This document shows, piece after piece, positions 15,943-60,740 of a DNA stretch of 64,000 nucleotides. Numbering within the stretch: the stretch's first letter is position 1; each line of letters starts with the position of its first letter. This stretch comes from an uncultured Acidobacteriota bacterium. Lineage in GTDB: Bacteria; Acidobacteriota; Thermoanaerobaculia; UBA5066; Gp7-AA6. The notes beneath the pieces were generated by a model. It was given only the letters and a program-made list of their open reading frames with translations. It was not told the origin of the DNA and did no database searches. Location: the NCBI GenBank assembly GCA_963739435.1, contig CAVUAN010000005.1, forward strand, positions 168,128 to 232,127, given 5' to 3'. The position numbers and the translations under genes were made by a program.

Positions 15943-17171
15943 GACGCGGCGGACCTGCCCATGCCCTCGGCATAGACGTCGAGCAGGCGGTCCGCCACCC
16001 GGCCCCACGTGTAATCGCGCAAGACGAGCTCGCGGCCGCGCGCCCCCATTCCGGCCAGCTGCTCCGGATGCCGGAGCAGGTCGCCCAGCACGTCGGCGAG
16101 AGCTCCGACTGACCGCGCAGCGACGCGTCCGGCCCCGGCCTGCTCCACTTCCGGAAAGTGGCATCCCGGGGAGATGACCACGGGCGTCGCACTGGCGAGA
16201 GCCTCGAGGACGGCCATGGAGAAGCCTTCTGCGTCGGACGGCAGGCACAGCAGGTCGGCCCGGGCCAGAAGATCGACCTTGTCCTTCCCGCTCACCATGC
16301 CGGCAAAAACCACCCGTTGCGCGAGCCCGGCCGCGCGGATCCGATCCAGGAACGCCGCCGCGATTCCCCATTCGTCCGGCCCGGCGAGAACCAGCCGCGC
16401 CCGGGGAAGCCCCGGGGCGATGCGCAGGAAAGCCTCGAGAAGGATGTCCGCTCCTTTGTGCGGGTGGAGCCTTCCCAGGAAGAGCACGACCGTCTCAGCG
16501 GGCGACAGCGCGAACCGCGACTCGGCCGCGCTCCGCGATCCTCCGAGGTAGGCCTCGACGTCGATCCCGTTGGGGACCACGCGGATCGGGGCCGTGGCGC
16601 CGGCGGCCCTGTAGCTTTCGATCTCGGCCTCGGTCAGCGCGATCAGCGCCGCCGCCTTCCGCAGGGCGGGACGTTCGACCATCCGGATGTACAAGCGTTT
16701 CTTGACGCCCCGGAAGCGCAGCCGCTCCGGATCGAAGACGCCCCGCTGGTTGTAGAAGAGCGGCTTACCGTGCCGGAAGGCCGCCCGAGCGGCCGCCCAG
16801 CTCGGGTAGATGAAGGGCATGTGCGTGTGGACGAGATCGACCCGCGGCACGGCCGCGTCGAGCGCCGCGCGCAGGGCAGGAGCCCAGAGGTATCCGATCG
16901 AGCGGGAAATGTAGGGCACGAACCGCAACTTCTTCTGCAACGAATCGTCGCGCCGGAAATACCAGACGTCGACGCCATCCACCGACACCGGCTGGTCCAG
17001 GGGCACATCGAGATCTTCGTCCAGATTGGAGTTGGTCGTAAAGACGGTGACCCGGTTCCCCCTCGAAACCAGCGTCTCGGCCAGCCGCGAAACGGACACG
17101 ACGGGCCCGCCCAGCCTCCAGGCCGGCTTGTAACCGTGCACGACGAAGAGAATCTGCAGCGGCTGGGTCAC
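15939..17171 (-). CDS. Glycosyltransferase family 4
   Basis: Intact 410-aa ORF. The N-terminus is ILFVVHGYKPAWRLGGPV and the C-terminal region reads ..PSDAEGFSMAVLEALASATPVV.. Confidence 0.85.
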   Translation of the reverse strand: MTQPLQILFVVHGYKPAWRLGGPVVSVSRLAETLVSRGNRVTVFTTNSNLDEDLDVPLDQPVSVDGVDVWYFRRDDSLQKKLRFVPYISRSIGYLWAPALRAALDAAVPRVDLVHTHMPFIYPSWAAARAAFRHGKPLFYNQRGVFDPERLRFRGVKKRLYIRMVERPALRKAAALIALTEAEIESYRAAGATAPIRVVPNGIDVEAYLGGSRSAAESRFALSPAETVVLFLGRLHPHKGADILLEAFLRIAPGLPRARLVLAGPDEWGIAAAFLDRIRAAGLAQRVVFAGMVSGKDKVDLLARADLLCLPSDAEGFSMAVLEALASATPVVISPGCHFPEVEQAGAGRVAARSVGALADVLGDLLRHPEQLAGMGARGRELVLRDYTWGRVADRLLDVYAEGMGRSAAS

Positions 17172-17190
17172 GATCCGGGGCGATCCTCGA

Positions 17191-19057
17191 TCACACGCGT
17201 ATTCCGTAATGGCGCCGCCACAGCTCGAACATCACGAGCGCGAAGAGGCGCTGCGTGTTCGCCAGGCCCCGGCTCTGGCCCCGGACGAGAGAACGAACCG
17301 TGGGAGGGTCGAACAGCGCCGGATCCGCTTCGGAGAGCACGTCCTCGATGAAGCGGCCCCAGTCGCCGCGAAACCAGTCGGCCAGAGGCAGCGCGAACCC
17401 CTGCTTGCGCGAAAGGTCCAGCTCCGCCGGCAGAAGCTTCGCCGCCAGCCGCCGGGGGAGGATCTTGCGCCTGCCGCCCTTCGCCCGCAGGGAATCGGGC
17501 ACGTCGCGGAACGCGAGCTCGATGATCCGCGGATCGAGCCACGGCGCCCGCACCTCGAGCGAGGTCAGCATGCTCGCCCGATCGACCTTGACGAGGATGT
17601 CGTCGACGAGGTACGTCTCGAAGTCGACCGCCGTGGCCTGCGGAGAGAGGGGATGCATGCGGGCCGGCAGAGCCCGGCCTTGTAGTCTTCGGGCGTCCCT
17701 TCCCGCGCGGAAGCGCGCCGGGCGCCAGCAGGCGCCGCCGCGTCCGCGCGTCGAAAAAGAGGTTGACGTGCGCGATGACGCGGGGCACGTCTCCCGCCGC
17801 CGCGATCAGGTAGTTGCGGCCCCGGACGCCCGGAGGAAGGATCGTCGCCGCGCCTCCGACGGCCCGCCGCACCGGCCCCGGGAGCGCGCGCATCACCTGC
17901 TGCTGGCGCTCGATCCAGTCGTAGTGGAGGTAGCCGCCGAACAGCTCGTCGCCGCCGTCGCCGCCCAGGGCGACGGTGGCGTGCTGGCGGATCAGCCGGG
18001 AGACGAGGTACGTCGGCACCATCGACGAGTCGCCGAGCGGCTCGTCGTACTGCCGGGCGAGTTCGGGCAGCAGATCGACGGTCGCCGGCTCGGCCGCGAG
18101 CTCGAGGTGATCGGTGCCGAAGTGCCGGGCCACGAGCCGCGCGTGCGGCGCCTCGTCGAAGTCGCCATGCCCCGGAAACGAGATGTTGAACGTCTTCACC
18201 GGCTTCGACGACACGCGCGCCGCCATCGCCGTCACGAGGCTCGAGTCGATCCCCCCGCTCAGCATGATCCCGACCGGCACGTCCGCGATCAGCCGCAGGC
18301 GCACCGAGTCGAGGAGAAGATCCTCGAGCTCGCGCACGAGCTCGGACGCCGGCCGGTCCGGGCCCCGCTTCCGATCGGGCAGCTACCAGTACGCCCAGGT
18401 CGTCACCAGGTCGCGCTCCAGGTCGAAGGTCAGCGCGTGCCCCTGCGGAAGCTTGTGCACTCCCGCCAGGATGCAGAGCGAGCCCGGGACGTAGCCGTAC
18501 GTGAGGTAGAAGTCCAGGCCCTCGCCATCGAGCTCGCGCGGAAACGCCGGGTCCGTCATCAGGGCCTTCAGCTCGGAGGCGAGGGCGAGCGTCCCGTTGG
18601 CGTGGCGGTAGAAGAGGGGCTTCTCGCCGGCGCGGTCCCGCGCGCAGAAAGACCTGCTCTTCTCGGTGTCGTAGAGGGCGAAGGCGAACATCCCGTTCAA
18701 GCGCGACAGGCAGTCCGTTCCCCACTCCCCGTAGGCCTCGAGGAGCACCTCCGTGTCGCTTGCCGTCCGAAAGCGGTGCCCGAGCTTCTCGAGCTCGGCT
18801 CGCAGCAGGCGGTAGTTGTAGATCTCGCCGTTGAACGTGATCCACCAGCGCCCGGCGGAATCGGACATCGGCTGATGGCCGCCCGGGGAAAGATCGATGA
18901 TCGCCAGCCGCCGCATCGCGAGGCCGACACGCCCGTCGTCCGACCACCAGGAACCCGAGTCGTCCGGTCCCCGGTGCCGGATGCTGTCTCGCATCGCATC
19001 CAGAGGAGGCCGCGGCCTGCCCGCCTCGCGGGCAGCGACGGCGACTATTCCGCACAT
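17191..19057 (-). pseudogene. asnB: Asparagine synthase (glutamine-hydrolysing)-type amidotransferase, in-frame TAG at 18383-18385 plus at least one frameshift near 17660-17720
   Basis: The N-terminal nucleophile is MCGIVAV.. (ATG at 19057). The synthetase PP-loop SGGIDSS lies after the stop, in the same frame. The C-terminus [31 protein letters not shown]... lies in another frame (ORF 17191..17658). Confidence 0.8.
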
Positions 19058-20163
19058 GCGCGGCCTCCGTCGGAAGGAGCGGCGCCCAATTCCCTGTAGA
19101 CCCCCTCGAAGCGGCGCGCGGCCTTTTCCGCCGAGAGCGTCCGCACCCGCTCCCGCGCCCGGGCGGCGCGCTGGCGCGCGAGCGAAGGATCCGCCAGACA
19201 GCGCTCGATGCCCTCCGCCATCGACTCGACTGACGACGCGTCGACGAAAATGGCGCAATCTTCGCTGGCGATCTCGCGGTGGGCGGGAATGTCCGAGAGC
19301 ACGACGGGGCAGCCCGCGGCCATCGCCTCGAGCACCGCGTTGGGCTGTCCTTCCGCGAGACTCACCGACACGAGCACATCCGCGCGCCTCATCAAACCCC
19401 ACACATCGGGACGGTAGCCCGAAACCCGCACGATGTCGGCAATTCCTTCGGACCGGACCGCGTTGTCGACCAGCTCCGGATGGGTTCCGTCACCGACCAG
19501 GAAGGCCGTGACCGGCACCTTTTTGGCAACCCGGCCGATTGCCCCGATCATCCGGGGGAGGTTCTTGATCGGCGTAAAGCGGTTGACGGACAGGATCATC
19601 CGGCTTCCGCGTGGCAGCCCGAGTGCCGCGTCATCGGCCGGCTCGGCCCGCTCGATATCGTCAAACGGAACGATGTTCGCGATGATCTCGCACCTTCCTC
19701 CGGAGGGCGCTCTCCCCCGCCAGTAGGCGACGCCGCCCTCGGAATTGGCCACGATGGCGCCGGCCGTGCGGGCCACGAGAGCCCGAAACCGCTCTTTCAC
19801 CCCGCCCTCGTAGAACGCGGCCGAGCTGCGTTCGGTAAGGACCCACGGAACGCGCAGGATGGCGGCCGAAAGGCCGGCAGCGACGTCCATCTGGAGGAGC
19901 CACGTCTGGACGACGGACGGCTCGAGCCGGCGGATGAGCCGGCAGAGGTCGAGAAGGAGACGCGGATCGTGGCTCCCGCGGCCTTCGAGAACGCAGATGC
20001 CGACACCGGCGTCTTCGAGAAGAGCGGCGATCGGGCCCTGCTTGCCGAAGGCGACGTGGACGCCCCAGCCGCGCCGGACCTGTTCGCGGGCGAGATAGGC
20101 GAGCTGCCTCTGGGAGCCGCCGTTCAGCATGTCGGGGATGCAGTGCAAAATGCTCGGGCGCAT
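19045..20163 (-). CDS. Glycosyltransferase family 4
   Basis: Intact 372-aa ORF containing ..VSLAEGQPNAVLEAMAAGCPVVLSD.. Confidence 0.85.
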   Translation of the reverse strand: MRPSILHCIPDMLNGGSQRQLAYLAREQVRRGWGVHVAFGKQGPIAALLEDAGVGICVLEGRGSHDPRLLLDLCRLIRRLEPSVVQTWLLQMDVAAGLSAAILRVPWVLTERSSAAFYEGGVKERFRALVARTAGAIVANSEGGVAYWRGRAPSGGRCEIIANIVPFDDIERAEPADDAALGLPRGSRMILSVNRFTPIKNLPRMIGAIGRVAKKVPVTAFLVGDGTHPELVDNAVRSEGIADIVRVSGYRPDVWGLMRRADVLVSVSLAEGQPNAVLEAMAAGCPVVLSDIPAHREIASEDCAIFVDASSVESMAEGIERCLADPSLARQRAARARERVRTLSAEKAARRFEGVYRELGAAPSDGGRACAE

Positions 20164-22991: not shown

Positions 22992-23753
22992 TCAACGCTG
23001 CATGCGCAGAACGAGCCACGGGCAGAGAGCCCCGACGTCGAAGGGTTGCGCCAGGCCGGCGAGGTTGAGCGCGGCGACCGCGGCCGCCGCAGCCGGCGCC
23101 GGCCACCGGCGATGAAAGCTGATCAGGCCCGGGAGAAGGCGCCCGAAGCGGTAGACCTCGACGCGCGAAACGAGATCGCGCGGGGCCAGCCCGGCGAGCG
23201 CTTCCAGCGTCATGATGTCGAGATTGTGAATGTCCAGGCTTGCGACATCGAAGCGGCGCTGGATCGTTCCGTACAGACCCCGGTAGTTCGGGATCGCAAT
23301 GAGCGCGGTGCCGCCCGGTGCGAGCAGAGAGGCATGGATCCGGACGAGGGGCCTCGGGTCGTCGAAATGCTCGATGACGCCCAGGCTGTAGACCAGGTCG
23401 AAGCTTCCGGGAGGAAACGTCGTTTGGAAGACGTCCTCGTGGCGAAGGTCGCCCTCGATCTCCAGAGCTGCGAAGAGCTGGCGCGCGGTTGCGATGCCAT
23501 TCTCCGCGAAGTCGACGCCGGCCACCCGGGCGCCCAGGACCTTCGCGACCCAGGCGAGGTACTTTCCCGGCGCAAAGCCGATCTCCAGGACGCGATCTCC
23601 CGGCTCCACTTCTCGGGCGAGCAACCTCTTGAAATTCTTCGTGCCGACCCAGAGCGAGGACGGCAAACGCATTCGGGGCGGGCGGCCGTACTGGCCCTCC
23701 CAATAGGCCATATCCGTCTTCGGCCCGGTCTCTTCTATCGGCGAGCCCTTCAT
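22992..23753 (-). CDS. Class I SAM-dependent methyltransferase
   Basis: Motif I is RVLEIGFAPGKY. The post-I/II regions read DLVYSLGVIEHFDDP and LLAPGGTALIAIPN. Confidence 0.75.
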   Translation of the reverse strand: MKGSPIEETGPKTDMAYWEGQYGRPPRMRLPSSLWVGTKNFKRLLAREVEPGDRVLEIGFAPGKYLAWVAKVLGARVAGVDFAENGIATARQLFAALEIEGDLRHEDVFQTTFPPGSFDLVYSLGVIEHFDDPRPLVRIHASLLAPGGTALIAIPNYRGLYGTIQRRFDVASLDIHNLDIMTLEALAGLAPRDLVSRVEVYRFGRLLPGLISFHRRWPAPAAAAAVAALNLAGLAQPFDVGALCPWLVLRMQR

Positions 23754-24724
23754 CCCTGTCTCACGAGGGAGATCTCTTCATAGAATCTCCGGCTCTTTGC
23801 GAGGCCTTCCTTCAAGCTCGTCTCGGGCTTGAAGCCCAGCTGCCGGGAGACGAGAGACAGGTCCGCCAGCGAGTGCAGCACGTCGCCAGGACGAGCCGCC
23901 TCGAACGCGGGCTTGATCGCCCGCCCGGCGACCTCGCCCACGAGACGCGCCAGGTCCGAGACGGTCGTCTGGGTCCCCCCGGCGACGTTGTACGCGGCCC
24001 CGCAGGCTTCCCGCGGCGCAACGGCGGCGAGCAGGTTCGCGTGCACCGCGTCGGCAACATAGGTGAAGTCGCGGCTCTGCCGGCCATCGCCGTAGATGAC
24101 CGGCGGCTCTCCCCGAAGCACGGCCCGAAAGAAGCGCGGGATGACGGCGGCGTAAGGGCCCTGGGGATCCTGGCGAGGGCCGTAGACGTTGAAATAGCGG
24201 AGGCCGACGGTCTCGAAGCCGTAGCAGCGGTCGAAGACCGAGGCCGTCTCTTCGCCGACACTCTTGGAGAGCGCATACGGCGAGAGCGGCCGCCCCTCCT
24301 CCCCTTCCCGCTTGGGCAGTTTCTCGCTGTCGCCGTAGACGCTCGACGACGAGGCATACACGACACGCTGGACGCCAAACTCCCGGCCGGCGGCAAAGAC
24401 ATTGACCGTGCCCAGCACGTTGACGGCAAAAGTCGTCCCCGGGTCCTTCATCGAGCGCGGAACCGAACCGAGCGCCGCCTGGTGGAACACGACGTCGATG
24501 CCTTTGGAAGCGCGCCCGCAGACGTCCGAATCCCGGATGTCCCCTTCGACGAGCTCCACGCGATCCAGGACGTGGGCGATGTTCTCGCGATGGCCTGTGG
24601 CGAAATTGTCGAGAACCCGGACGCGAGCGCCTCGAGCCAGCAATGCGTCCACGAGATGCGATCCGATGAATCCGGCGCCGCCGGTGACGAGCACCGGCCG
24701 TCCGTCAAAGGAAGGGATGGGCAT
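23750..24724 (-). CDS. NAD-dependent nucleotide-sugar 4-epimerase (WbpP/TviC-like)
   Basis: The Rossmann motif is VLVTGGAGFIGSHL and the catalytic motif is SPYALSK (YxxxK). Also present are ..RYFNVYGPRQDPQGPYAAVIP.. and DGRQSRDFTYV. Confidence 0.85.
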   Translation of the reverse strand: MPIPSFDGRPVLVTGGAGFIGSHLVDALLARGARVRVLDNFATGHRENIAHVLDRVELVEGDIRDSDVCGRASKGIDVVFHQAALGSVPRSMKDPGTTFAVNVLGTVNVFAAGREFGVQRVVYASSSSVYGDSEKLPKREGEEGRPLSPYALSKSVGEETASVFDRCYGFETVGLRYFNVYGPRQDPQGPYAAVIPRFFRAVLRGEPPVIYGDGRQSRDFTYVADAVHANLLAAVAPREACGAAYNVAGGTQTTVSDLARLVGEVAGRAIKPAFEAARPGDVLHSLADLSLVSRQLGFKPETSLKEGLAKSRRFYEEISLVRQG

Positions 24725-24730
24725 TGCCGG

Positions 24731-27499
24731 CTACGCCCGGACCACCGTCGCGGAAACGCCGAGGGGTAAGACGAGATTGCGCGTGTCCACGACGAGCCGC
24801 GCGCCCTTGTACAGCGCCTTGTCGCGAAAAGCCTTGTGGGCCGTGGACACGACGATTGCGTCGTGACGCGCGAACTCTTCGGCGGTGCACGGAACCGAAA
24901 CGAGCCGCAGGTCGTGCTGCCGCCCCTTCCGGGCCACCGGGATGTACGGATCGCAGTAGGCGACGATCGCCCCGCGCTCGGCCAAGAGCTCGATGATCTC
25001 GAAGGACGGGGACTCCCGGTCGTCGTCGATGTCCGCTTTGTAGGAGAGGCCCAGCACGAGAACCCGGGCGCCCTTGACGCTCTTTCCGTGAGAGTTCAAC
25101 GCCTCGGCCGTCTTGTCGACGACGTAGCGCGGCATGCCCGAGTTGATCTCGCCCGCGAGCTCGACGAACCGGGCCCACACACCGTGCTCCGCCGCCTTCC
25201 AGGCGAGGTAGAAGGGATCTAGAGGAATGCAGTTGTGTACGAACACGCCTCCAGTGGTCAAGAACGTATGTGATCCCGGGACCTCGACGGAGAAGACGGG
25301 CTCCTGGCCAGGTTCCAGACGAACGCTCTTAACGGGTGCGGCCCTTCCCCCCGACCAGGGCAAGTTGCGCCGCGGACGCCCCTCCCTAACCCGGCTTTCC
25401 TGCAACCGGTCCAGCCGCCGGCCCTTTTCGCCGCCAAGTAGTCGTGCGAGCCGCTGCAGGCTCTCGGAGCCAGCCATCCGCAAGTGAGGCTTCCCCTTCT
25501 TTCTCATCGGGCTGAAGCCGAGTCCCTGAAGCAGACTCTCAGCCTGGGCAAAAAGCTCGGGGCTCGAAGAGAAGTACCCGACCTTCCCGGAGTTGAACTG
25601 GTTCAGATAGGAACGACCTTTCTTGACATAGGGGCGAGGGCCCGTGCGTACGTCAACATCTCCGTCGCCGCGGAGGAGGCCGGCAAGGACCTCCTCGTGG
25701 TGGCGGTTGGAAGCCCCCATCACCGCCCCGGGGATCCGCATGCTGTAGCAATCCGTACCGGTGCAAAGGACATCCCGGAGGACGTGACCGAGAACGATCG
25801 AGCCGACGCGAAGTGTCGTGGCTTGAAACGTCTTGTCGTTGTGAATCGAGACGCGGACCCCGAGGGCCCGAAGGATCGAAACGACGTCGTCCATGTACTC
25901 ATTCTCGTTCCGATTGAAGGTCAGCCGGACCCGCGGGTTCATTCGCTCCTCGGTGATGCATCCCTCGCTCAGGAAGTACCCAAGGAACCGGCAAAAATCG
26001 GGCGAGAGCTTCAGGATCGCCGGGATTTGAGTGTGCGCCGACCCTCTCCCGCTCAAGAGCAGAAGTTGTTCACGTCCCACATTCAATTCGCTCTCGAGTG
26101 CCAGGTAACGCCTGGCCGAAAGCGAGTCCTTCCGGATCGAGTCGCGAATCGTCCAACCGTAGCGCGACTTGAGGAGCGGCGCGAAACGAGACCAGGGGAT
26201 ATCCACGATCCGTACGTGGAGCTTGTCCGCAACAGCTGCTGGAAGGAGTTTCAAAAGGTCGAGGGCGGGGTCGCCATGCGCCGAAGAATCGGGACCACCG
26301 TCGGACATGCCAGCGAAGAGCGGAACGCGGTCGCCCGGCTTCAAATCTCTGGCCTCTCGTACCACGAGCTGGTCGCCCTCCACGATCAGCATGGGATGAC
26401 GGTCGGTGGTGCGAAGCACTCTGTTTCCCGCCAGCCTGACCTCGGCCATCGGTCCGGCAAACCGACGCCTGAAAAGCCCGGAGACCCTTCGCCAGCTGGC
26501 GCCACCCGTACGAGGATCGATCGACAGAGTTTCCAGACCATCGGGCAGGAGAAGCTCCGCGTCGCCGGCCGTGATTGCCTTGCCTTTTGCGCGGCAGCGC
26601 TCGAAAAGCTCACTCAGGGGCAGAACGGTATTGATCGCTCCATCACGAATGCGAACGGTTTCGCCGCCGGCCAGGCAGTGGCCTCCGAGCCCGGGGCCCG
26701 GCGTGAAAGGCATGAAGCCGAACGGCTTCGTTTTCGCGGCCGCGATCACTTCCCAGACGTCGATGCCCATACGGTCGAGAATGACCTTCATCTCGTTGAC
26801 GAGGGCGATGTTCACCGAACGGAAGATGTTCTCGAGCAGTTTGGACGACTCGGCGACCTCGGGCGAGGAGACGGGCACGACCGTGTCGATCACGGAGCCG
26901 TAGAGGGCGACCGCCGCCTCGAGGGAGGCCGCGTCGATGCCGCCGACGATCTTCGGAATGTTGCGGGTCGAGAACCGCTCGTTGCCGGGATCCTCCCGCT
27001 CCGGCGAAAAGGCCAGGAAGAAATCGCTTCCGCAGGCGAGCCCGCGCGCCGTCAGCAGGGGCAGCAGCTCCTCCCGCGTCGTTCCGGGATAGGTCGTCGA
27101 CTCGAGGACCACCAGCTGGCCCGGACGCAGCCGCCGAGCGATTTCTGAGGCGGCGCTCCGCACGAAGGACAGATCGGGCTCGCGGTGCGGCCCGAGCGGC
27201 GTCGGCACGCAGATGAGGACGGCGTCGCACTCCGAGAGCCTCGCGAAATCGGACGTCGCCCGCGCCCGTCCGCCGGCGAATGCTTTCGCCACACGCTCCC
27301 GGCCGAGGTGCTTGATGTACGACTCTCCGCGAGCCAGTGCCTCGGGCTTCGCCGGATCCGAGTCGAAACCGATGACCGGGAACCCCGCCTCCTCGAAGAG
27401 AAGGGCGAGGGGAAGGCCGACGTACCCCAGCCCGATGACGCCGACGGCGGCCTTCCGCGAGCGGATCCTGTCGAGGAGGCCCGGTGCGCCGGCGCTCAT
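24731..27499 (-). CDS. UDP-sugar 6-dehydrogenase (UDP-glucose/GDP-mannose dehydrogenase family, WbpO/TviB/WecC-like) interrupted by an intein
   Basis: I trimmed run-through ORF 24731..28498 to the ATG at 27499 (ATGA junction). The N-extein is 274 aa ([14 protein letters not shown] ... PGPGLGGH). The C-extein is 166 aa and starts with the catalytic-Cys motif CIPLDPFYL. The exteins sum to 440 aa, a normal size for this family. Confidence 0.9.
25232..26677 (-). mobile_element. Intein (482 aa) with LAGLIDADG homing-endonuclease domain
   Basis: - The intein starts with Cys ([13 protein letters not shown]).
- Block B is RTTDRHPM.
- The two LAGLIDADG motifs are [10 protein letters not shown] and [11 protein letters not shown].
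- The C-terminal splicing blocks are [22 protein letters not shown], followed by the +1 Cys.
- The intein sits in frame inside the conserved GGH|CIPLDP active-site motif. Confidence 0.85.
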
Positions 27500-28449
27500 A
27501 CGGCGACCTTCCGGGCCCTGTTCTCCCGGAACCACGCGACCGACTTCTTCAGGCCCTCGGCAAACGACGTGCGGGCGCTCCAGCCGAATCGCTCGGCCGC
27601 CCGGCTGGTGTCGAGCCGGCGGCGCGGCTGTCCGTTCGGCTTCGTCTTGTCCCAGGCGATGGAGCCTCTGTAACCGGCCTCCTGCGCGATCACCCGGGCA
27701 AGGTCGTGTATCGCGATCTCGATTCCCGACCCCAGGTTGACGGGCTCGGGAGACGCGTAGTGTTCGGCAGCGGCGAGAATGCCCTCGGCGCAGTCCTCGA
27801 CGTAGAGAAACTCGCGAGTCGGCGTTCCGTCGCCCCACAGGACCACCTCGCGCGCGCCGCTCTCGCTCGCCTCGACGAACTTGCGGATCATGGCCGGGAT
27901 CACGTGGCTCGACTCGGGGTCGAAGTTGTCCCGAGGTCCGTACAGGTTGACCGGCAGAAGGTAGATACCGTTGAAGCCGTATTCCTGGCGGTACGCCTGG
28001 AGCTGCACGAGAAGCATCTTCTTGGCCAGCCCGTAGGGCGCATTCGTCTCCTCGGGGTAGCCGTTCCAGAGGTCCTGTTCGCGAAAGGGAACGGGTGTGA
28101 ACTTGGGATAGGCGCAGATCGTCCCGAGGCAAACCATCTTGGCGACACCAGCGATCCGGCATTCCTCGATCAACTGGATACCCATGATCGCGTTGTCGTA
28201 GAAGAACCGCCCCGGGTGGGCTTCGTTCACGCCGATGCCGCCGACGACGGCCGCCGCGTGGATCACCAGGTCGGGGCGCGTCTCGGCAAGACAGCGGACG
28301 ACAGCAGCCCGGTCGCGGAAGTCGTATTCCGCCTGATCGGGCGTCAGCACGGCGGCCGGGCCCATTTCCCGCAGCCTCTCGACGAGGAAGCCGCCCAGGA
28401 AGCCGTGGCCTCCCGTGACGAGGACGCGCCGGGCGCTCCAGAAGCTCAT
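27496..28449 (-). CDS. fcl: GDP-L-fucose synthase (GDP-4-keto-6-deoxymannose 3,5-epimerase/4-reductase)
   Basis: I trimmed the ORF to the ATG at 28449 (ATGA junction with gmd). Family-typical segments are [20 protein letters not shown] (YxxxK), [27 protein letters not shown] and [10 protein letters not shown]. Confidence 0.85.
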
Positions 28450-29507
28450 TGCTGACTGACGAGCCGCGATTCGCGCGCCGCCTCTTCGAGATCGGCATCC
28501 GTCATCAGGTCCGTCAGCTCCTCGAAGGTCAGCTTCGGCGCCCAGCCGAGCGCCCGGCGGGCCTTCGAGGCATCGCCCTCGAGACGGTCGACCTCGGCGG
28601 GCCGCAGGTACCTCGTATCGATCTCGACGAGGGGATGACCTGTCCGGGCGTCGATCCCCTTCTCCTCGACGCCGCCACCCTTCCAGGCGAGGTCGAACCC
28701 GGCGCGCCGAAACGCCCGCTCGCAGAACTCCCGCACGGAGTGCGTCTTGCCGGTTGCGATGACGTAGTCGTCGGGCTCCGCCTGCTGGAGCATAATCCAC
28801 ATCGCCTCGACGTAGTCCTTGGCATAGCCCCAGTCGCGCCGGGCCTCGAGATTGCCGAGATACAGCCGTTCCTGCAGGCCGTGGCGGATCCTCGCGACCG
28901 CGCGCGTGATCTTGCGCGAAACGAACGTCTCCCCCCGGCGGGGGCTTTCGTGATTGAAGAGGATCCCGTTGACGGCGAACATCCCGTAAGCCTCGCGGTA
29001 GTTCACCATCGACCAGTACGCGAAGACCTTAGCGACAGCGTACGGGCTGCGCGGGTGGAACGGCGTCTTCTCCGTCTGGGGAACTTCGGCGGCCTTGCCG
29101 TAAACCTCCGAGGACGAAGCCTGGTAAATGCGCGGGCGCAGCGCCTGCTCGCGGATCGCCTCGAGCAGGCGGATGGCGCCGAGGCCGGTCACATCTGCGG
29201 TGTACTCGGGGGTGTCGAACGAGACCTTCACATGACTCTGCGCCCCGAGGTTGTAGATTTCGTGCGGCTCGACCACGCGCAGGATCCGGTTGAGGGAAGA
29301 GGCGTCGTTCAAGTCCCCGTGATGAAGGAACAGCCGCCGGTTCGGATCGTGCGGGTCCTGGTAGATGTGGTCGATCCGCGCCGTGTTGAAGGACGAAGAT
29401 CGGCGGACGACGCCGTGGACTTCGTACCCTTTCGCCAGAAGCAGCTCGGCCAGGTAGGACCCGTCCTGCCCGGTGATTCCCGTGATGAGTGCGCGTTTTG
29501 TGGGCAT
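28446..29507 (-). CDS. gmd: GDP-mannose 4,6-dehydratase
   Basis: [49 protein letters not shown].. is a near-canonical Gmd N-terminus. [10 protein letters not shown] and [19 protein letters not shown] are also present. Confidence 0.95.
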
Positions 29508-29523
29508 TCTTCTCCGCCCGATC

Positions 29524-30429
29524 TTAAGGCTTCGTGCCCGCGACCGAAACCGGAAACGGCCCGATCCGGAGGTCCACCAGGCCGGATTCGAGAAACCACT
29601 TGCGAACCTCCGGCTCGGTGTGCGTCCACTGAAATCGAGGCGAATACCAGTCGAACGTGTCGAGGACCCGCCACTCGGGATCGGGGTGGCCCGACATCGG
29701 CAGTAGCCACCGGAGGGGCAGGGTGACGATCCGAGGGCTCCGAATCCTTCCGAGGCGATCGGCCATGCGGCTCCACCGAAGGAGCTGCTCCTTGGGCATC
29801 CGGGTCGTTCCGAGGCGATAGAACACGCTCATGAGCGTTCGCCACCGCAGCGAGCGCGGATAGACCCAGATCGCGATCCGTCCGCCGGGGCGAAGGTACG
29901 GGGGAAGCGCTCGGAACGCGTCGCGGGTGCTCGGCGTGTGATGGAGCACACCGACGCTGTAGATCGCATCGAATGTCTCTGGCGCAAAGGGAAGCGAGAA
30001 CAGGTCCGCCTGGACGACGGCGGCGTTCTCGAAGCGCTCCAGGTTGACGGCCGCCGCCTCGACCGCCTGCGAGAGATCCACACCGACGACCCGCGCGCCG
30101 GCGCCGGCGACAACCTCCATGAAACGCCCCATCCCGCACCCGACGTCGAGGATCGTCTTCCCGCGGAGATCAGCCAGGGAAAGGCCCGTCTTGGCGACGA
30201 ACGTGTCTCGAGATTCCGTCGTGCCGGCGGCAGAATCGAGCTGTGTCCGAGTGAAAATGTTCCATTGATATCCGAAGGTCGTCGCATAGGCCTCGGCCTC
30301 GACGAATCGAGGAATGGACCGAACGATCGGATAACGGCCGCCTTTTCCGACCAGGCTCTCGCCGTCCCGACGCAGGACACTGCCGTCGGCCGGATCCCGA
30401 AGCAGCTCCGCTAGCCAGCTTTTCATCAT
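29524..30429 (-). CDS. Class I SAM-dependent methyltransferase with N-terminal Trm112-like segment
   Basis: I trimmed the ORF to the ATG at 30429 (ATGA junction). Motif I is [24 protein letters not shown] and [12 protein letters not shown] are also present. Confidence 0.75.
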
Positions 30430-31769
30430 TTTGCGTGAGAAGGCGAAGATACCGCAGCTCCGCCGCCCGGCAGTTCCGCGGCCTTTGTCGGCGGAGAAGC
30501 AAGGACGGCGGCGAGAGAAAGCGGGTACCACCACCAGAGGTCGATGAAGCTCGCCGTGTGCAGTTGCTGGACGGCCGCGACCACGATGAGCACGGGAACC
30601 GCCAGGGCCGCGAAGGCGTCTGCCGGGCTCGCACGAAAACGCCGCCACGCGAGCGCCAGGGCGCCCGCCAGAAGGAGTGGGCCGAGAATCCCCATCTCAG
30701 CGGCGATCGCGAGCCAGCCGCACCAGGGATCCTTCGCGAAGAGCTGGTCAGCCTGGCGCGCCTCAAACACGATCGCAAACTGTCCCAGGCCGCACCCCAC
30801 GAGCGGCCTCGACTGAAAGAGCTCGGCCAGCAGCCGGACGTTGTAGATCCGGACCCAGGACGACTCCGGCAGCTCCGGGTTCATGGCGGGCAGGGCCGCG
30901 CGGGAGGCCCGGATGTTGTTGTAGCGCTCGACGAGCACCGAGCGAACCGGGCGGCCCCAGGGGGAAGAAACGGCCGCCATCACGAGCAACGCCGTCAGAG
31001 CCGCCGCGGCCAGGAGATTCTTGAGGCGAACGCGGCCGGATCGGATCAGGACGACGCTGCCCGCCACGAGCAGGGCGGAGAGGTCTGCATAGGAGCCCAA
31101 CGAAACCGTCGCCGCGATCGTCGCCGTCAGCAGCAGAGCCGGCACTCCCCAAGAAAAACGCTGCCGCGCCGATGAAGCGGAAAGAAACCCGGCGGCCACC
31201 AGCACGAGGACCCAGACCAGGTATCCACCCAGAAAAGACGGCTCGAGAAACACGGAAGTCGGCCGCAGATAGCTCCCCAGGTACATGAACTGGAAGATCC
31301 CGCGCTGGATCGGCCCGAGGCTCAGTCCCGTCCCGGGCCAATTGCGGAAGTGGCCGAGCGTCTGGTAGATGGCGAAACAGGAGACGAGCGTTGCCATGAC
31401 GACATGCGGGGCGACCAGCCGATTCCGGCCGTGGGGGCGCCCGGGGAGGGACGTCGCTGCCAGGAAGAACGCAGCCACCAGAAGCCAGTGCGCGTAGGAG
31501 ATACCAAACGCGGCGAGCGAAAAGGACGCCGGCCGGGACAGGAGCGCCAGCAGTGGGACCACAGCCGCGCCAAGACCAAACACCGCCGCCCCGGTCGCGA
31601 GCCCTCGCCGGAAGAGGGCCGGCAGACTCGCAACGACGAATGCCGCAGCCAGGACCGTCGCTGAGTCCACGGACTTCCCGAGCAGGTGGAAAGGCGGAAA
31701 CGCGTAGAACGGCACGGCGAGCCCGGTCAAAACGAACAACGCAAAACGCAGGCGTAGGACGGCTTTCAT
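30426..31769 (-). CDS. O-antigen ligase / Wzy_C-family polytopic membrane protein (ligase, polymerase or O-oligosaccharyltransferase)
   Basis: The 447-aa ORF has about 10-12 TM helices and a loop containing ..GSYLRPTSVFLEPSFLGGYLVWVL.. This loop resembles the Wzy_C signature region. Confidence 0.6.
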   Translation of the reverse strand: MKAVLRLRFALFVLTGLAVPFYAFPPFHLLGKSVDSATVLAAAFVVASLPALFRRGLATGAAVFGLGAAVVPLLALLSRPASFSLAAFGISYAHWLLVAAFFLAATSLPGRPHGRNRLVAPHVVMATLVSCFAIYQTLGHFRNWPGTGLSLGPIQRGIFQFMYLGSYLRPTSVFLEPSFLGGYLVWVLVLVAAGFLSASSARQRFSWGVPALLLTATIAATVSLGSYADLSALLVAGSVVLIRSGRVRLKNLLAAAALTALLVMAAVSSPWGRPVRSVLVERYNNIRASRAALPAMNPELPESSWVRIYNVRLLAELFQSRPLVGCGLGQFAIVFEARQADQLFAKDPWCGWLAIAAEMGILGPLLLAGALALAWRRFRASPADAFAALAVPVLIVVAAVQQLHTASFIDLWWWYPLSLAAVLASPPTKAAELPGGGAAVSSPSHAK

Positions 31770-32821
31770 CGGCGCCCGTCCCAGGACGGCTCGCCGCCTC
31801 CGCGCCCGGCCACTTCCTCGAAGATCCGGGCGAGCCGGGGAGCGTTGGCCTTGATCGAGTGCGCGCGCTCGGCGGCAGCCCGGCCCTTCTCACCGCAGCG
31901 GGCCGCGAGCGGCCGGTCCTCATAGAGCCTTTGGAGGCCCTCGAACCATTCCTGCGCGTTTCGCGCCGCGAGGCCAACGGGATCCTCGGCCAGAATCTCT
32001 GCGCCCGATCCGACCGGGCTGACCAGAACCGGAATGCCGAGGGCCATGTACTGGACCATCTTGGCCCCGCACTTGCCCCACGACCAATGGCTCTCCGGAA
32101 GGGGCATGAGGCCGACGTCCATTTTCCCGACGGAGTCCCGCTCCCCCGTCTCCGACCAGCGTTCGAACGTCCAGCTCCGCCGCGGGATTTTCGTAAAGAC
32201 CGGCTCCCGATCGCAGACGACGAGCAGCCGGGCATCCTGGTGCAGAGCCAGGAACTCTGCCAGGGGCTCCTCGATCCAATTGAGAAAAGCGAGGTTGTCC
32301 GCCGATCCGATCCAACCCACCGTCCACCCGCCGTTGCCGTGCGGAGGCCGGGGCTTCCAGACGTCGGTGTCGACACTGGTCGGCACGAGCCAGACTTTCT
32401 CCGAGAGTCCTCGGTAGTGCTCGGCGATGAAGCGGTTGCCGGCGACGACGCCGCGGCACCGCCTCGCGATCTGTTCGGCCTGGCCCGGCCGGCCCATGAG
32501 CCATATGGCGTCGTCCACCTCGAGCACGGTCTCCCGCGGAAGGAAGCGCTCGAAGGTGTAGCGGCCGGCGATCATGTCCCTCTCGAGCCAGACGACGTCG
32601 CTTCGCCGCGCCGTCAGAAGCAACGGGATCCGGGACACGACCCTGCCGACCCTCCAGAGCTGCCGGGCCGCCGGAAAGGGCGGCTTCGAGTACTTCTCGA
32701 CGAACGGACGGTGTTCCCGTACGTCGATGCCGAGGCGCCGCAGCGGCTCGATGTACTGCCGGATCCGAAACCGCGTCGAGGGGACGAAGCGGCCGGCCGT
32801 CAGGGCAGCGACCCTAATCAA
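31766..32821 (-). CDS. Glycosyltransferase (GT-B fold)
   Basis: Intact 351-aa ORF with a TTG start. The C-terminal half (..GLMPLPESHWSWGKCGAKMVQYMALGIPVLVSPVG..) is typical of GT1/GT4-like enzymes. Confidence 0.7.
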   Translation of the reverse strand: MIRVAALTAGRFVPSTRFRIRQYIEPLRRLGIDVREHRPFVEKYSKPPFPAARQLWRVGRVVSRIPLLLTARRSDVVWLERDMIAGRYTFERFLPRETVLEVDDAIWLMGRPGQAEQIARRCRGVVAGNRFIAEHYRGLSEKVWLVPTSVDTDVWKPRPPHGNGGWTVGWIGSADNLAFLNWIEEPLAEFLALHQDARLLVVCDREPVFTKIPRRSWTFERWSETGERDSVGKMDVGLMPLPESHWSWGKCGAKMVQYMALGIPVLVSPVGSGAEILAEDPVGLAARNAQEWFEGLQRLYEDRPLAARCGEKGRAAAERAHSIKANAPRLARIFEEVAGRGGGEPSWDGRR

Positions 32822-33776
32822 GCCGTTGCGCCCACACGGTCATGAGCCCGGTCTGCCGCACGGCGGCCATGAGTCTCGCAATGGGATGGAGCAAAAAGTG
32901 CCACAGGCGTCCTTCATGTTCCGGATAATTCGACATCCAGCGGGCGAGCCGACGCAGGATACGACGATCGGATAGCCAGTAGCCGAAGCTTCCGACGACG
33001 TTCCGCAGGTCCCGGTGGTAGAAGACCCGGTCGAGACGCCAGCCCGACAGACAGGAGGACGCGCCTCAGGGTCTCGGGTGTCGGATGCCAGAGGTGGTTG
33101 GGCAGGTGCAGCGCGTACCACCTCTCGCCGAAGAACCCGAGTTCCCAGCAGGCCGCGTTGGGAACGGACGCGACGAGCCAGCCCCCGGGTCTCGTCCACT
33201 CCCTCATCCTGCGAAGCGCGCCGACGGGGTCGTGCAGGTGCTCGAGCACCATCCAACCCACCACCAGGTCGAACGGCTTTGCCGGCGGCAGGGCGGCGGC
33301 GACCGGGCCGACCTGCACGGAGAGCCCCGCCATCCGCGCCTCGGCCCCCGCAGCGGCCGAGAACTCGATCCCCTCGACCTGCCAGCCCCGGCGCGCCATG
33401 TGATCCAGGAACTTGCCGGAGGCGCAGCCGATCTCGAGCATCCGGCCGGGCGCCTGCTCCGGGAGCCGTTGCGCGTTGCTGTCGAAGATCCGCCAGATCA
33501 ACGCTGCGAGCTTGCGCAGCCACGGAGGGCGCGCGCTTTCTTCCGGCACGCGCGTCCCGCGGTAGGGGCCATAGTCGTCCGGGTAGTAGACCTGGATCGA
33601 TTCGGGCGTCGGCCGCGGATTCGTCCGCAACAAACCGCAGAGGCGGCATCGCACCACCGTGAACTCGCCCGGAAGACCCTGCAGCCGGTCCCGACCCGTC
33701 AGGACGAAGTCGTCCCCCGCCGGGCAGCCCAGGGGGCAGCCGCCGACTCGAGCTCGACTGAGGCCGCCGCGCTCAT
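32814..33776 (-). pseudogene. SAM-dependent methyltransferase with N-terminal Cys4 zinc ribbon, two frameshifts (about 33700-33770 and about 33040-33050)
   Basis: The ATG at 33776 forms an ATGA junction with the upstream gene. The zinc ribbon GGCPLGCPAGDDF...VVRCRLCGL and the MT core (RMLEIGCASGKF; DLVVGWMVLEHLHDP) lie in a second frame. The C-terminus RLDRVFYHRDLRNVVGSFGYWLS...GLMTVWAQRLD* returns to the first frame. The total of 963 nt is a multiple of 3. Confidence 0.6.
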
Positions 33777-34492
33777 TTGCGCGCGATGACCGACCATCCG
33801 AGCGGACCGTTCTTCTCCTTCTCGAGCGGCTCGAGAAGGAGGAGGACGCTCTGCAGGATCCGGACGAGAACCAGGGCGACGAGCCGCACGGGCGCCCAGA
33901 GCAGCCGGCTGAGTCGAAACTGGCCCGACAGGAGGCCGGACCCCGGGATCACTTCCATGACGCGGGTCATCTCGTAGGCGAGCCTTGTAAAGAGCCCCCC
34001 AAACGGCGCGACGTCGACTCGGCCGAACCCCGCGTCGCCGCAGACCGAGCGAAGCCCGAAGGAGGTGAAGCGGAAGAAGTCGTGCGGGACCTGGTGCTCC
34101 GCCTGAGCCATGGGCGCCGTCAGATACAGAACACCGCCGGGCTTCAAGACCCGGTAGAGCTCCCGGACGCATTCTCTCGGCCACTCGAGGTGCTCGAGGA
34201 CCTGCGTGCAGAGAACCGCGTCCAGGCAAGCGTCCCGCAAGGGAAGCCGGTCCAGGAGCGCCAGGGAATCGAGGTTCGCGTAGTTCCAGGCCTGTTCGCC
34301 GACAGCCGAGTCCATGGCCACGTACCTGCAGTGCTTGAAGAACCTCTCGTAGGCGCACTCCCCCGCGCCCGCGTCCAGCAGCAGCGCGCCCGGAGCCACG
34401 GCCGCCGCGACGCTCTCGACGAACCGCGTGACGTGCCAGCGGCCCAGATCCGCGAGCCTCCCCGTGCGGGTGAAATCCTCGTTCAGTCTCAC
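33773..34492 (-). CDS. Class I SAM-dependent methyltransferase (type 11)
   Basis: The GTG at 34492 overlaps the upstream stop (GTGA). Family-typical segments are LLLDAGAGECAY, DAVLCTQVLEHLEWP and LKPGGVLYLTAP. Confidence 0.7.
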   Translation of the reverse strand: MRLNEDFTRTGRLADLGRWHVTRFVESVAAAVAPGALLLDAGAGECAYERFFKHCRYVAMDSAVGEQAWNYANLDSLALLDRLPLRDACLDAVLCTQVLEHLEWPRECVRELYRVLKPGGVLYLTAPMAQAEHQVPHDFFRFTSFGLRSVCGDAGFGRVDVAPFGGLFTRLAYEMTRVMEVIPGSGLLSGQFRLSRLLWAPVRLVALVLVRILQSVLLLLEPLEKEKNGPLGWSVIARK

Positions 34493-45632: not shown

Positions 45633-47402
45633 CTACTGGAAGTAGCCGTTGACGTCGACGACGACGTGGGCGGTGCCGGAGCCCTGCTGGCAGTAGATGG
45701 TGACGGAGCCTGGCCCGCCGAGCGGCATGATGGCGTTGTTGGCCCGGGTCTGTCCCGACTTGTAGTTGATCGTCGCGGCCTGGGGCAGATCGGAGACCCC
45801 GGGCCGCATCGTCAGGAAGCCCGGGCCCGCCGTGGGCTGCGTCACGGCAACGTTGAGCGAAACGGCTGTCGCTGTCGGAGGGATCCCGCACTGCCCTGCA
45901 AGGAGGAAGGTACGATCCGCTCCGTCGTTGAGGGCGGGTCCGCCGTACGGCCCGTCAACGTCGCGCGTATCCACGACCCGGCACGGCTGGACAGTGTAGA
46001 AGCTCGGCGTCGGGCCCGCCGTTACCGGGGCGCACGCGGAAAACTCCGACGTGTCACTGAAAACGTCCGTCGACGTCGCCGTTACGACCGAGCCGGGCGC
46101 GAGGCTCGCCATGAATAGCCCCGAAAACGTCCCGTTGCAGGACGAGTCGGTCGCCACGAGCATCGACCCGATGTAGGTCTTTCCTTCGCCATTTCCGGAC
46201 GCGTTGCAAGATGGCGAAGTGAAGAACTCAAGCGTGTAGAGGGCGTCCGGCTCACTATTCAGCGTCCCGTCGATCCGCACCTGGCTCCCGATCTGCGTCG
46301 CTTGAGTTAGCACCGGAAAGTTCAACAGCAAGTTGGGGCCCGTGTCCGCGTCGCAGGGATCGTTGGGCGTAACGCCAGGTCCCACGCCGCCCACCAGATC
46401 GATGCCCAGACCATTGCCGAAGATCGCGTTCCTCGAGATCGGGTTGCGCACCGATGTCCCGTCGATGGACACACCGGTGCCGTTGAAGGCGATCACGTTA
46501 GCCCCGGCGCCTCCTCCCACGATGGTCCGGCTGCCCGTACTAATGTGTACGCCGGCAAGCTGGCTAGGCAAGGAGCCCTGGCCCAAGGCGTCCGGCCCGA
46601 TTGTGTTGCCCTGAATCGTGACGTCGTTGACGCCGCTGATGTCGATCCCGTATGCGTTGTTGCCGGAAATGAGATTCCCAAAACCGGGGAAAGGTCCCCC
46701 GATCAGTGTTCCGGTAGCGGAAGAGAAGTAGACGAAGATGCCAGTGAAATTAGGAACGGCAGCCGTCCCGGCGGCGTTTGTCCCAATCCGGTTGCCCACG
46801 ATCAGCGCCAGTCCCTGCGCCCAGATTCCGTAATTATTTCCCGAAATGAGGTTCCCCTCGCCGGGCGAAGTGCCGCCGACGGTTGGTCTGTAGGAGCTGT
46901 TCTGAACAATCACCCCGATGCCGTTTGGTCGAGCGAATTGCCCCGTGGGATCCGTCCCGATGAAGCTGCTCACGACCTTCGCGTCCCCTTGCAGGTAGAT
47001 CCCAGCATTGGGGCAGTTGTTGATGACGACGGCCCTGACGACGCTCGACCACCCAAAACCCATACAGGTATAGCCAGCCGGCAGAAGACTTCCGTCGATC
47101 TGGATCAGCGGAGTCCCGGCGTAGCCCGGCTGCGTCGTTCCGTCGACGATCACGGTCCCGGCGACGCCCAGGCCCCCCGATAACGGGCGAATCGTCTTGA
47201 CGCCCGTGCCGATCGAGAAGGCGACTGTTCCACCCGGAAAGCCATCGGCATCAGCCAGTGCCTGCCGCAGCGAGCCTGGTCCCGAGTCGTTCGTGTTGGT
47301 CACGGTATAAATCGCTGCAGCGGCAGTTCCGGGCGCAGCCAGGGCGAGCACGAGCACTAGCCCGAGGCGCAAGAGAGGGCCCGTAGTCGGCTTGACCAGC
47401 AC
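45633..47402 (-). CDS. Secreted right-handed beta-helix protein (CSLREA-type N-terminus) with C-terminal two-Cys module (B1)
   Basis: A signal peptide is followed by IYTVTNTNDSGPGSLRQALADA. Repeated ..GN.I.GN..GI.. beta-helix turns follow. The C-terminus is FYTVQPCRVVDTR...VVVDVNGYFQ*. Confidence 0.8.
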   Translation of the reverse strand: MLVKPTTGPLLRLGLVLVLALAAPGTAAAAIYTVTNTNDSGPGSLRQALADADGFPGGTVAFSIGTGVKTIRPLSGGLGVAGTVIVDGTTQPGYAGTPLIQIDGSLLPAGYTCMGFGWSSVVRAVVINNCPNAGIYLQGDAKVVSSFIGTDPTGQFARPNGIGVIVQNSSYRPTVGGTSPGEGNLISGNNYGIWAQGLALIVGNRIGTNAAGTAAVPNFTGIFVYFSSATGTLIGGPFPGFGNLISGNNAYGIDISGVNDVTIQGNTIGPDALGQGSLPSQLAGVHISTGSRTIVGGGAGANVIAFNGTGVSIDGTSVRNPISRNAIFGNGLGIDLVGGVGPGVTPNDPCDADTGPNLLLNFPVLTQATQIGSQVRIDGTLNSEPDALYTLEFFTSPSCNASGNGEGKTYIGSMLVATDSSCNGTFSGLFMASLAPGSVVTATSTDVFSDTSEFSACAPVTAGPTPSFYTVQPCRVVDTRDVDGPYGGPALNDGADRTFLLAGQCGIPPTATAVSLNVAVTQPTAGPGFLTMRPGVSDLPQAATINYKSGQTRANNAIMPLGGPGSVTIYCQQGSGTAHVVVDVNGYFQ

Positions 47403-47458
47403 AGGAATCTAGCTCGATCCTGTTCTCGCCGTACCGGTTACGTCAAGAGGCAATGCCC

Positions 47459-60673: not shown

Positions 60674-60740
60674 GGGTTCAAAATCCTTGGCCGGAATCCT
60701 ACTCTTGCCCGGCCCCTGCCGTGACAGGATCTTGCTCGAG

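Follow-up and report, generated by a model that had tools for sequence, protein, structure and literature searches.

A 64,000-nucleotide stretch of a metagenome-assembled contig from an Acidobacteriota bacterium (hereafter the window, whose numbering is used for all coordinates) carries a nucleotide-sugar dehydrogenase gene that encodes a protein of 922 residues, more than twice the length of an uninterrupted homologue. The question raised by this locus is what the additional 482 residues are, and what they would mean for an enzyme whose catalytic cysteine they directly precede. An earlier interpretation made without database searches (the sequence-only reading) had proposed a full-length LAGLIDADG intein at 25232-26677, whose removal leaves a 440-residue enzyme with the motif GGHCIPLDP, and these coordinates and numbers proved to be exact. 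Considering the evidence presented below, the element is in all probability a class-1 intein (Cys1, His-Asn and Cys+1) of the "udp" allele, with a nested LAGLIDADG homing endonuclease, located between His274 and the catalytic Cys of a nucleotide-sugar 6-dehydrogenase.

Insertion site and the intein-less allele

The dehydrogenase gene is contained in a stop-to-stop frame on the minus strand (24731-28498) with its ATG start at 27499, and the precursor frame is open across 2769 nucleotides, with no stops and no frameshifts. A protein identical to the 922-residue precursor is present in NCBI/ENA (P0001). The insert sits between GGH and CIPLDP, and its deletion leaves 440 residues with an uninterrupted GGHCIPLD motif. 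Enzymes of the nucleotide-sugar dehydrogenase family use the Cys of an invariant GGxC motif as covalent catalyst and an Asp four residues further on as general base; Cys260 and Asp264 of the S. pyogenes enzyme and Cys258 of S. aureus Cap5O are the corresponding residues, and in Cap5O the catalytic Cys also engages in a regulatory disulphide (PMC4794789). We aligned the spliced sequence over this motif with Cap5O (3ojl) and with the UDP-ManNAcA dehydrogenase of P. horikoshii (4r16). Judged by this alignment and the literature on the GGxC motif, the +1 Cys coincides with the residue that provides the dehydrogenase with its catalytic thiol, as the sequence-only reading had claimed. Because the two residues are the same, an unspliced precursor should be unable to act as an enzyme, which we regard as a strong inference, and it is a sound deduction from the sequence that glycan synthesis would depend on splicing.

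A search with the spliced sequence retrieved an intein-less protein of 440 residues (P0128), 90% identical to the spliced extein and encoded on a contig from another metagenome (L001; GCA_900681975.1). This contig is collinear with the window over the genes for a GDP-mannose dehydratase, a GDP-fucose synthase, the dehydrogenase, an epimerase, a methyltransferase, a flippase-like protein and the next gene, the shared genes having 82-96% amino-acid identity. At the nucleotide level the dehydrogenase genes of the window and of L001 are 88% identical in a gap-free alignment, apart from exactly 1446 bp that only the window gene has, inserted between the codons for His and Cys (GGH/C, where the slash marks the insertion point); the junction of the empty allele reads CCCGGCCTCGGAGGCCAT/TGCATTCCACTGGATCCC. 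Since the empty allele lacks exactly the insert, the insert is not a native domain of a dehydrogenase subfamily, the outcome that the sequence-only reading had named as fatal to its proposal, and the comparison with an intein-less allele that it had suggested confirms the insertion site.

Collinearity with L001 stops upstream of the GDP-mannose dehydratase gene (29508-33948 of the window against 1-2007 of L001). There, L001 carries a methyltransferase of 301 residues, whose resemblance to the methyltransferase-like open reading frame (ORF) at 32914-33948 of the window extends over 99 residues with only 30% identity, so the polysaccharide clusters of the two contigs differ in gene content on that side.

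Splicing domain and homing endonuclease

Curated profiles recognize both halves of the expected architecture within the insert. The Pfam models Intein_splicing (40.8 bits, cut-off 35.8) and LAGLIDADG_3 (38.8 bits, cut-off 22.5, spanning intein residues 231-283) were matched above threshold, as were the NCBIfam models intein_Nterm (TIGR01445, 27.9 bits, cut-off 24.5) and intein_Cterm (TIGR01443, 20.0 bits, cut-off 15.6), and the insert also partly matches the intein segments of the Tes, RNA polymerase A'' and PolII models. When the insert was searched against the sequences of the PDB, the top matches were PI-PkoII and the CDC21 and RadA inteins. Cys1, the block B TxxH, the penultimate His, the terminal Asn and the Cys at +1, which together define the intein class, are all in place, and every element quoted by the sequence-only reading (Cys1, TDRHPM, two LAGLIDADG motifs, HN and the +1 Cys) is present in the translation. 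Residue conservation was determined in an alignment of 120 full-length relatives, namely the window copy and 119 others, in which Cys1, T91, H94, H481 and N482 are all invariant.

A model of the intein built with AlphaFold2 (AF2) from 15 diverse relatives reached a predicted local distance difference test score (pLDDT) of 91.2 and a predicted template modelling score (pTM) of 0.89. Its top Foldseek matches are all endonuclease-bearing inteins, headed by 2cw7 (PI-PkoII, E = 1e-29) and followed by 7qss, 1dq3 and 1vde; the TliVMA and PhoVMA inteins, PI-PfuI and PI-SceI are among them. A HINT fold is recognizable on the predicted model, the splicing lobes of which are matched by the mini-inteins 5o9i, 4e2t and 6rpp with root-mean-square deviations of 1.7-2.4 Å over about 125 columns. 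The middle of the model matches the free LAGLIDADG enzymes I-Tsp061I, I-DmoI, I-AniI, I-OnuI and E-DreI (Foldseek E = 1e-9 to 1e-5) and displays the pseudo-dimeric alpha-beta-beta-alpha-beta-beta-alpha core of these endonucleases. On the model, the endonuclease region consists of a helical, DNA-recognition-like segment and a LAGLIDADG core. With curated cut-offs passed and a predicted fold shared with endonuclease-bearing inteins, the description of the insert as a full-length LAGLIDADG intein stands.

Both LAGLIDADG motifs end in an acidic residue followed by Gly (FLGYFLSE238G and LAGLLRGD338G). At 66% identity to the nearest intein, saturation of the synonymous sites would be expected to spoil an estimate of the ratio of nonsynonymous to synonymous substitution rates (dN/dS), and constraint was assessed by region-wise conservation instead. 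Across the 119 relatives the LAGLIDADG core (residues 223-400) is the best-conserved part of the intein, with a mean identity of 51% against 43-45% for the splicing lobes, a pattern expected under selection for endonuclease function. By sequence, the element appears capable of splicing as well as of cleavage. In none of the frames of the window did a motif scan detect another LAGLIDADG motif of the intein type, and a search allowing up to 3 mismatches found no uninterrupted homing site or paralogue in the window.

Base composition and signs of mobility

The insert differs in composition from the gene that surrounds it. Its GC content is 0.622 compared with 0.677 for the exteins, and its GC content at third codon positions (GC3) is 0.726 compared with 0.880, with abrupt steps at both junctions in 50-codon bins. 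On a codon-adaptation index built from the genes of the window, the intein scores 0.57 and the exteins 0.75-0.77, while each of the 28 reference ORFs, all picked with GC3 above 0.75, scores at least 0.61. Within these ORFs, chosen for high GC3, 1.5% of in-frame segments of 1446 nucleotides have a GC3 as low as that of the intein. The lower GC and GC3 and the contrast in codon usage support a foreign, incompletely ameliorated element; the impression of the sequence-only reading that the insert is less GC-rich than its flanks, in line with horizontal arrival, was therefore correct.

The relatives of the host enzyme point in the same direction. At least 120 intein-less clusters, at 75-90% identity, are nearer to the extein of the window than any intein-bearing one; among the intein-bearing exteins the best reaches 74% identity, and its intein 66%. 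Extein and intein identities are weakly correlated across the matches (r = 0.38), and hosts about 60% identical in their exteins have inteins whose identity to that of the window is close to 62% in some cases and to 40% in others. The element thus probably arrived horizontally, into a dehydrogenase clade that is mostly without it.

Among the relatives there are also mini-inteins of 237 and 220 residues without an endonuclease (P0022 and P0025) and inteins of 292 and 378 residues left by partial endonuclease deletions, all at the same site and with intact junctions. Together, the full-size, partially deleted, mini-intein and empty forms cover the whole homing cycle. The relatives forming this decay series are P0022, P0025, P0041, P0023 and P0024. 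The last of them, of 656 residues, has the interior of the endonuclease (…FSSSPE) joined directly to …TPFYLTWKAA, with neither the HN/Cys junction nor the remaining C-extein, and from its sequence is probably a dead allele.

Distribution of the allele

The search with the precursor returned 1,363 protein clusters (at 90% identity, counted among the scored candidates), and all 120 of the 120 listed share its architecture; many such proteins are already named as intein-bearing in the JGI annotation. Among the 127 sequences formed by the first protein-search matches and the cluster members, 124 have Cys1, the terminal HN and the +1 Cys at the GGH/C point, or about 105 by a stricter pattern. A scan of one genome per species identified at least 279 genomes that encode a relative of the intein, the top match being a partial locus at 55% identity; the genome of the window was not among the matches. 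Taxonomy and junctions were read in the best 80 loci, of which 77 are bacterial and 3 archaeal. The GGH/C insertion point was found by the strict pattern in 73 of these 80, and by inspection in the three archaeal loci and in L083, the latter at its N-terminal junction only. The bacterial loci belong to Acidobacteriota (Pyrinomonadaceae, Blastocatellia, Thermoanaerobaculia and Holophagae), Cyanobacteria, Chloroflexota, Planctomycetota, Omnitrophota, Elusimicrobia and other phyla, and the archaeal ones (Woesearchaeota or an unclassified archaeon) carry a related intein at the identical GGH/C...HN/C point. When 1.84 billion representatives were searched with a profile of the intein family, 307 clusters (50% identity) reached E <= 1e-30.

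UDP-glucose dehydrogenase has long been listed as an intein host (PMC2874743). Ten inteins of this enzyme were counted in Euryarchaeota by Novikova et al. (2016; PMC4760082), and the "udp" allele of Soucy et al. (2014), considered probably ancient by these authors, comprised 7 Halobacteria, 6 other Euryarchaeota including M. jannaschii, and 2 bacteria, Dictyoglomus and Fervidibacteria (PMC4071816). Our literature search found no paper that pairs an intein with a nucleotide sugar dehydrogenase by name. The window element is most probably a further member of this known and widespread intein allele, and it is not a rarity. The sequence-only reading had considered bacterial copies with an intact endonuclease less usual, which does not hold, given that the allele is abundant in bacteria (77 of the best 80 loci) and was already listed there in 2014 (PMC4071816). 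Inteins rarely occupy catalytic residues according to Novikova et al. (PMC4760082), and the position at such a residue characterizes the allele in general and is not peculiar to the window copy.

A related intein is also found in a fragment of a TuaD-type UDP-glucose 6-dehydrogenase (P0309), where it occupies the corresponding place in GGxC; the allele is consequently not confined to a single substrate branch of the superfamily.

Host enzyme and gene neighborhood

The exteins match the N-terminal (PF03721), central (PF00984) and C-terminal (PF03720) Pfam domains of the UDPG_MGDP_dh family above cut-off, the insert splitting the central domain in two. The nucleotide-sugar dehydrogenase model TIGR03026 (cut-off 189.8) gave 403 bits with the precursor and 420 bits with the spliced sequence. 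Equivalog models of defined substrate were all missed: those for UDP-glucose 6-dehydrogenase (AglM NF041297, 162 bits against a cut-off of 670; TuaD NF047673, 122 against 700), for UDP-ManNAc dehydrogenase (NF040825, 253 against 750; NF008286, 238 against 459) and for the UDP-GlcNAc 6-dehydrogenase TviB (NF011729, 215 against 592). The best of these sub-threshold matches are the UDP-ManNAc dehydrogenases and TviB, and the UDP-glucose dehydrogenase models score much lower. The host is consequently a nucleotide-sugar dehydrogenase, with TIGR03026 passed, while its identification as a UDP-glucose dehydrogenase is not supported, the equivalog cut-offs for that enzyme having been missed. The His of GGHC is typical of the UDP-N-acetylhexosamine dehydrogenase branch (PMC4794789), and the intein-less orthologues are labelled UDP-N-acetyl-D-glucosamine dehydrogenase by JGI. 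This His, the JGI naming and the TviC-like gene downstream (Table 1) favor the UDP-N-acetylhexosamine branch without proving the substrate, and the host is most likely, as far as can be judged from sequence, a UDP-N-acetylhexosamine 6-dehydrogenase paired with a 4-epimerase.

The gene is tightly packed between its neighbors. Its start codon shares bases with the TGA that ends the GDP-fucose synthase gene upstream (27496-27499; ATGA, within GTATGA), and only 6 nucleotides (24725-24730) separate its stop from the ATG of the epimerase gene; both features suggest translational coupling through the intein-bearing gene. The cluster also encodes methyltransferases, GT4 glycosyltransferases, a MurJ-like flippase and an asparagine-synthase-like amidotransferase. 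With GDP-sugar genes, glycosyltransferases and a flippase adjoining, the description of the setting as a glycan operon was a fair one. As to the taxon, every named close homologue of a trans-sulfuration enzyme encoded by a housekeeping gene of the window comes from Thermoanaerobaculia, and near relatives of the dehydrogenase agree with this assignment.

Table 1. Coordinates of the intein-bearing precursor gene, its parts and the adjoining genes (window numbering)
Feature	Position	Strand	Evidence or remark
Precursor, nucleotide-sugar dehydrogenase with intein	24731-27499	-	ORF and start codon; 922 residues and stop
N-extein, 274 residues	26678-27499	-	GC3 0.880
Intein, 482 residues, Cys1 ... 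His481-Asn482	25232-26677	-	Precursor residues 275-756; 1446 nucleotides
Cys1 codon, block A nucleophile	26675-26677	-	Cys in 119/119 full-length relatives
Block B T91-D-R-H94 (TxxH, in TTDRHPM)	26396-26407	-	T91 and H94 invariant, 119/119 relatives
Nested homing-endonuclease region, about residues 121-440	25358-26317	-	AF2 secondary structure and Foldseek matches
LAGLIDADG motif 1, FLGYFLSEG, acidic E238	25961-25987	-	E238 and G239 invariant, 119/119 relatives
LAGLIDADG motif 2, LAGLLRGDG, acidic D338	25661-25687	-	D338 in 118/119 relatives; regular-expression match at 25687
Block G His481-Asn482 and +1 Cys	25229-25237	-	HN invariant, 119/119; TIGR01443 match
C-extein, 166 residues and stop, begins CIPLDPFYL	24731-25231	-	GC3 0.880
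SDR epimerase	23750-24724	-	6 nucleotides downstream; best, sub-threshold match TviC (UDP-GlcNAcA 4-epimerase)
GDP-mannose 4,6-dehydratase, upstream	28446-29507	-	TIGR01472, 568 bits, cut-off 415
GDP-L-fucose synthase, upstream	27496-28440	-	NF047922, 297 bits, below cut-off

Within this polysaccharide cluster, the gene for the asparagine-synthase-like amidotransferase (17168-19489, minus strand) is broken. Its glutamine-amidotransferase part stops at an in-frame TAG at 18383-18385 (…TGG GCG TAC TGG TAG CTG CCC…); beyond it, the same frame carries the synthase domain with its SGGIDSS motif, and near 17800 a frameshift leads into the ORF at 17191-17805. Either a pseudogene or assembly errors would account for this. 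Outside the glycan cluster and unrelated to the intein, the window encodes a series of large proteins that are probably secreted or exposed at the surface (45633-49315, 51876-53243 and 56000-61006, all on the minus strand), among which are two NosD/beta-helix proteins, a reprolysin-like metallopeptidase with a TIG domain and a 1668-residue protein with CarboxypepD_reg, PKD and Ig-like domains.

Proposed mechanism and alternative explanations

By analogy with the intein family, from which the following steps are inferred, the 922-residue precursor would be translated as a catalytically dead protein, its nucleophile being separated from the remainder of the active-site loop by 482 residues. An N-S acyl shift at Cys1 would be followed by trans-thioesterification, in which the +1 Cys attacks the thioester; cyclisation of Asn482 would then free the intein, and an S-N shift would create the native peptide bond of a normal 440-residue enzyme. 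The endonuclease of the freed intein would cut intein-less alleles at the site coding for GGH/CIP, and repair from the occupied copy would spread the element (homing).

Several observations weigh against this explanation or limit its reach. The junction displays no co-conversion tract, the sliding identity to the empty allele being 0.88-0.93 on both sides with neither dip nor peak. A few other ORFs of the window have GC3 values of 0.70-0.74, which places the intein towards the bottom of the range without setting it apart. The closest intein sampled is only 66% identical, and no donor is among those sampled. The block F position, often Asp, is Ser463 here; Ser is found in 112 of the 119 relatives, and for this reason we consider it a family trait and not a lesion. 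The broken amidotransferase gene, on a contig assembled from a metagenome, makes some sequence error or gene decay at the locus possible. Finally, the splicing, endonuclease and dehydrogenase activities of the locus are predictions.

The alternative that survives best is that the intein splices but is immobile, its endonuclease no longer cutting, for example after loss of DNA-binding specificity; such an element would persist only because any imprecise deletion at the catalytic Cys would kill the host enzyme. Inactive endonucleases are common among inteins, and the relatives with a partly or fully deleted endonuclease demonstrate that decay occurs in this family. One report describes active and inactive pairs of archaeal inteins (PMC8966425). 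Against immobility, both catalytic acidic residues and both motif glycines of the window copy are intact, its reading frame is fully open, and the LAGLIDADG core is the region that the 119 relatives conserve best. We consider this alternative possible, though clearly the less likely outcome.

It is also conceivable that the element acts as a conditional switch, in which Cys1 and Cys+1 or other cysteines make splicing dependent on redox state or other conditions and thereby gate the supply of the uronic-acid sugar and the polysaccharide. The insertion at the catalytic thiol, which must leave the precursor inactive, the presence of Cys as nucleophile at both splice junctions, and the regulatory disulphide formed by the homologous catalytic Cys of Cap5O (PMC4794789) are compatible with this idea. 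Nevertheless, close relatives have the same operon without an intein, all the stages of decay that selfish elements typically pass through are represented among the relatives, and the Cys1/Cys+1 arrangement is common in ordinary inteins, all of which makes a switch improbable. There is a similarly slight chance that the intein is more than a passenger, with redox- or stress-dependent splicing serving as a post-translational gate on exopolysaccharide production in Acidobacteriota.

Decay of the whole gene has even less in its favor. A dead intein that no longer splices, in a host gene that is a pseudogene, would leave the source genome with a non-functional dehydrogenase, and the in-frame TAG and frameshift of the asparagine-synthase-like neighbor agree with parts of the cluster decaying. 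The dehydrogenase gene itself has neither stop nor frameshift in 2769 nucleotides, all residues needed for class-1 splicing are present and invariant in the family, and the exteins keep host-like codon usage, 90% identity to an intact homologue and all active-site motifs; we therefore regard this alternative as very unlikely. That the insert is a native domain of a dehydrogenase subfamily, as the hundreds of homologues with the same architecture at the same position might suggest, has next to no probability and was rejected, considering its canonical intein junctions, the profiles and predicted fold that identify HINT and LAGLIDADG domains, the near-identical enzymes that lack precisely the insert, the occurrence of the same intein family in the unrelated enzyme PurL, and the incompatibility with catalysis of an insert that parts the catalytic Cys from GGH. 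An assembly chimera was likewise rejected, on account of the exactly in-frame insert with its canonical junctions.

Significance

The homing-intein interpretation makes this locus a clean example of a selfish element on the catalytic residue of a metabolic enzyme, together with an empty-site partner locus, and the collinear occupied and empty pair formed by the window and L001 would be a natural bacterial system for demonstrating active intein homing. The survey of relatives also shows an allele described mainly from Euryarchaeota to be widespread across bacterial phyla. The general knowledge of inteins is unchanged by these results, and a greater import would follow only if splicing were found to be conditional or homing were demonstrated. 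For annotation, the gene should be described as an intein-containing nucleotide-sugar dehydrogenase with a mature product of 440 residues and not as a 922-residue fusion, and UDP-glucose should not be assumed to be the substrate of the dehydrogenase.

Comparison with known inteins

The "udp" (UDP-GD in InBase) allele resembles the window element in its host superfamily and in being a full-size intein with a LAGLIDADG endonuclease. In the loci compared, 3 archaeal and more than 70 bacterial ones, the insertion point is equal, and the window copy is a probable relative of the catalogued members from M. jannaschii (NP_248048.1), Dictyoglomus (YP_002250310.1) and haloarchaea. The window copy differs in residing in a polysaccharide cluster of a mesophile-type, high-GC Acidobacteriota genome (Thermoanaerobaculia), and its host belongs to the GGHC (UDP-N-acetylhexosamine dehydrogenase-like) branch and is not a proven UDP-glucose dehydrogenase.

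After the dehydrogenase inteins, the closest homologues are those of PurL (FGAM synthase II), full-length inteins in which both LAGLIDADG motifs are present (profile E = 1e-99 to 1e-61; P0285, P0291, P0295, P0301 and P0316). They are found in a different host and at a different insertion point, around residue 155 (..GNC/...THN/CVGVPT), and suggest that this lineage of inteins has crossed from one metabolic gene to another, unrelated one.

Among characterized inteins, PI-PkoII (Thermococcus kodakarensis Pol-2, 2cw7) and PI-PfuI (1dq3) are the best matches (phmmer E = 7.5e-12; Foldseek E = 1e-29; template modelling scores 0.59-0.65), and in them, as in the window intein, a LAGLIDADG endonuclease that has an additional segment for DNA binding interrupts the HINT domain. 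Their identity to it is only 12-18%, their hosts are DNA polymerase and ribonucleotide reductase, and their splicing and cleavage have been demonstrated, whereas those of the window intein are predicted. PI-SceI of yeast VMA1 (Foldseek E ~1e-12), the paradigm of a nested LAGLIDADG endonuclease that homes into empty alleles, differs from the window intein in being eukaryotic, in its host gene and in its location away from the catalytic nucleophile of its host.

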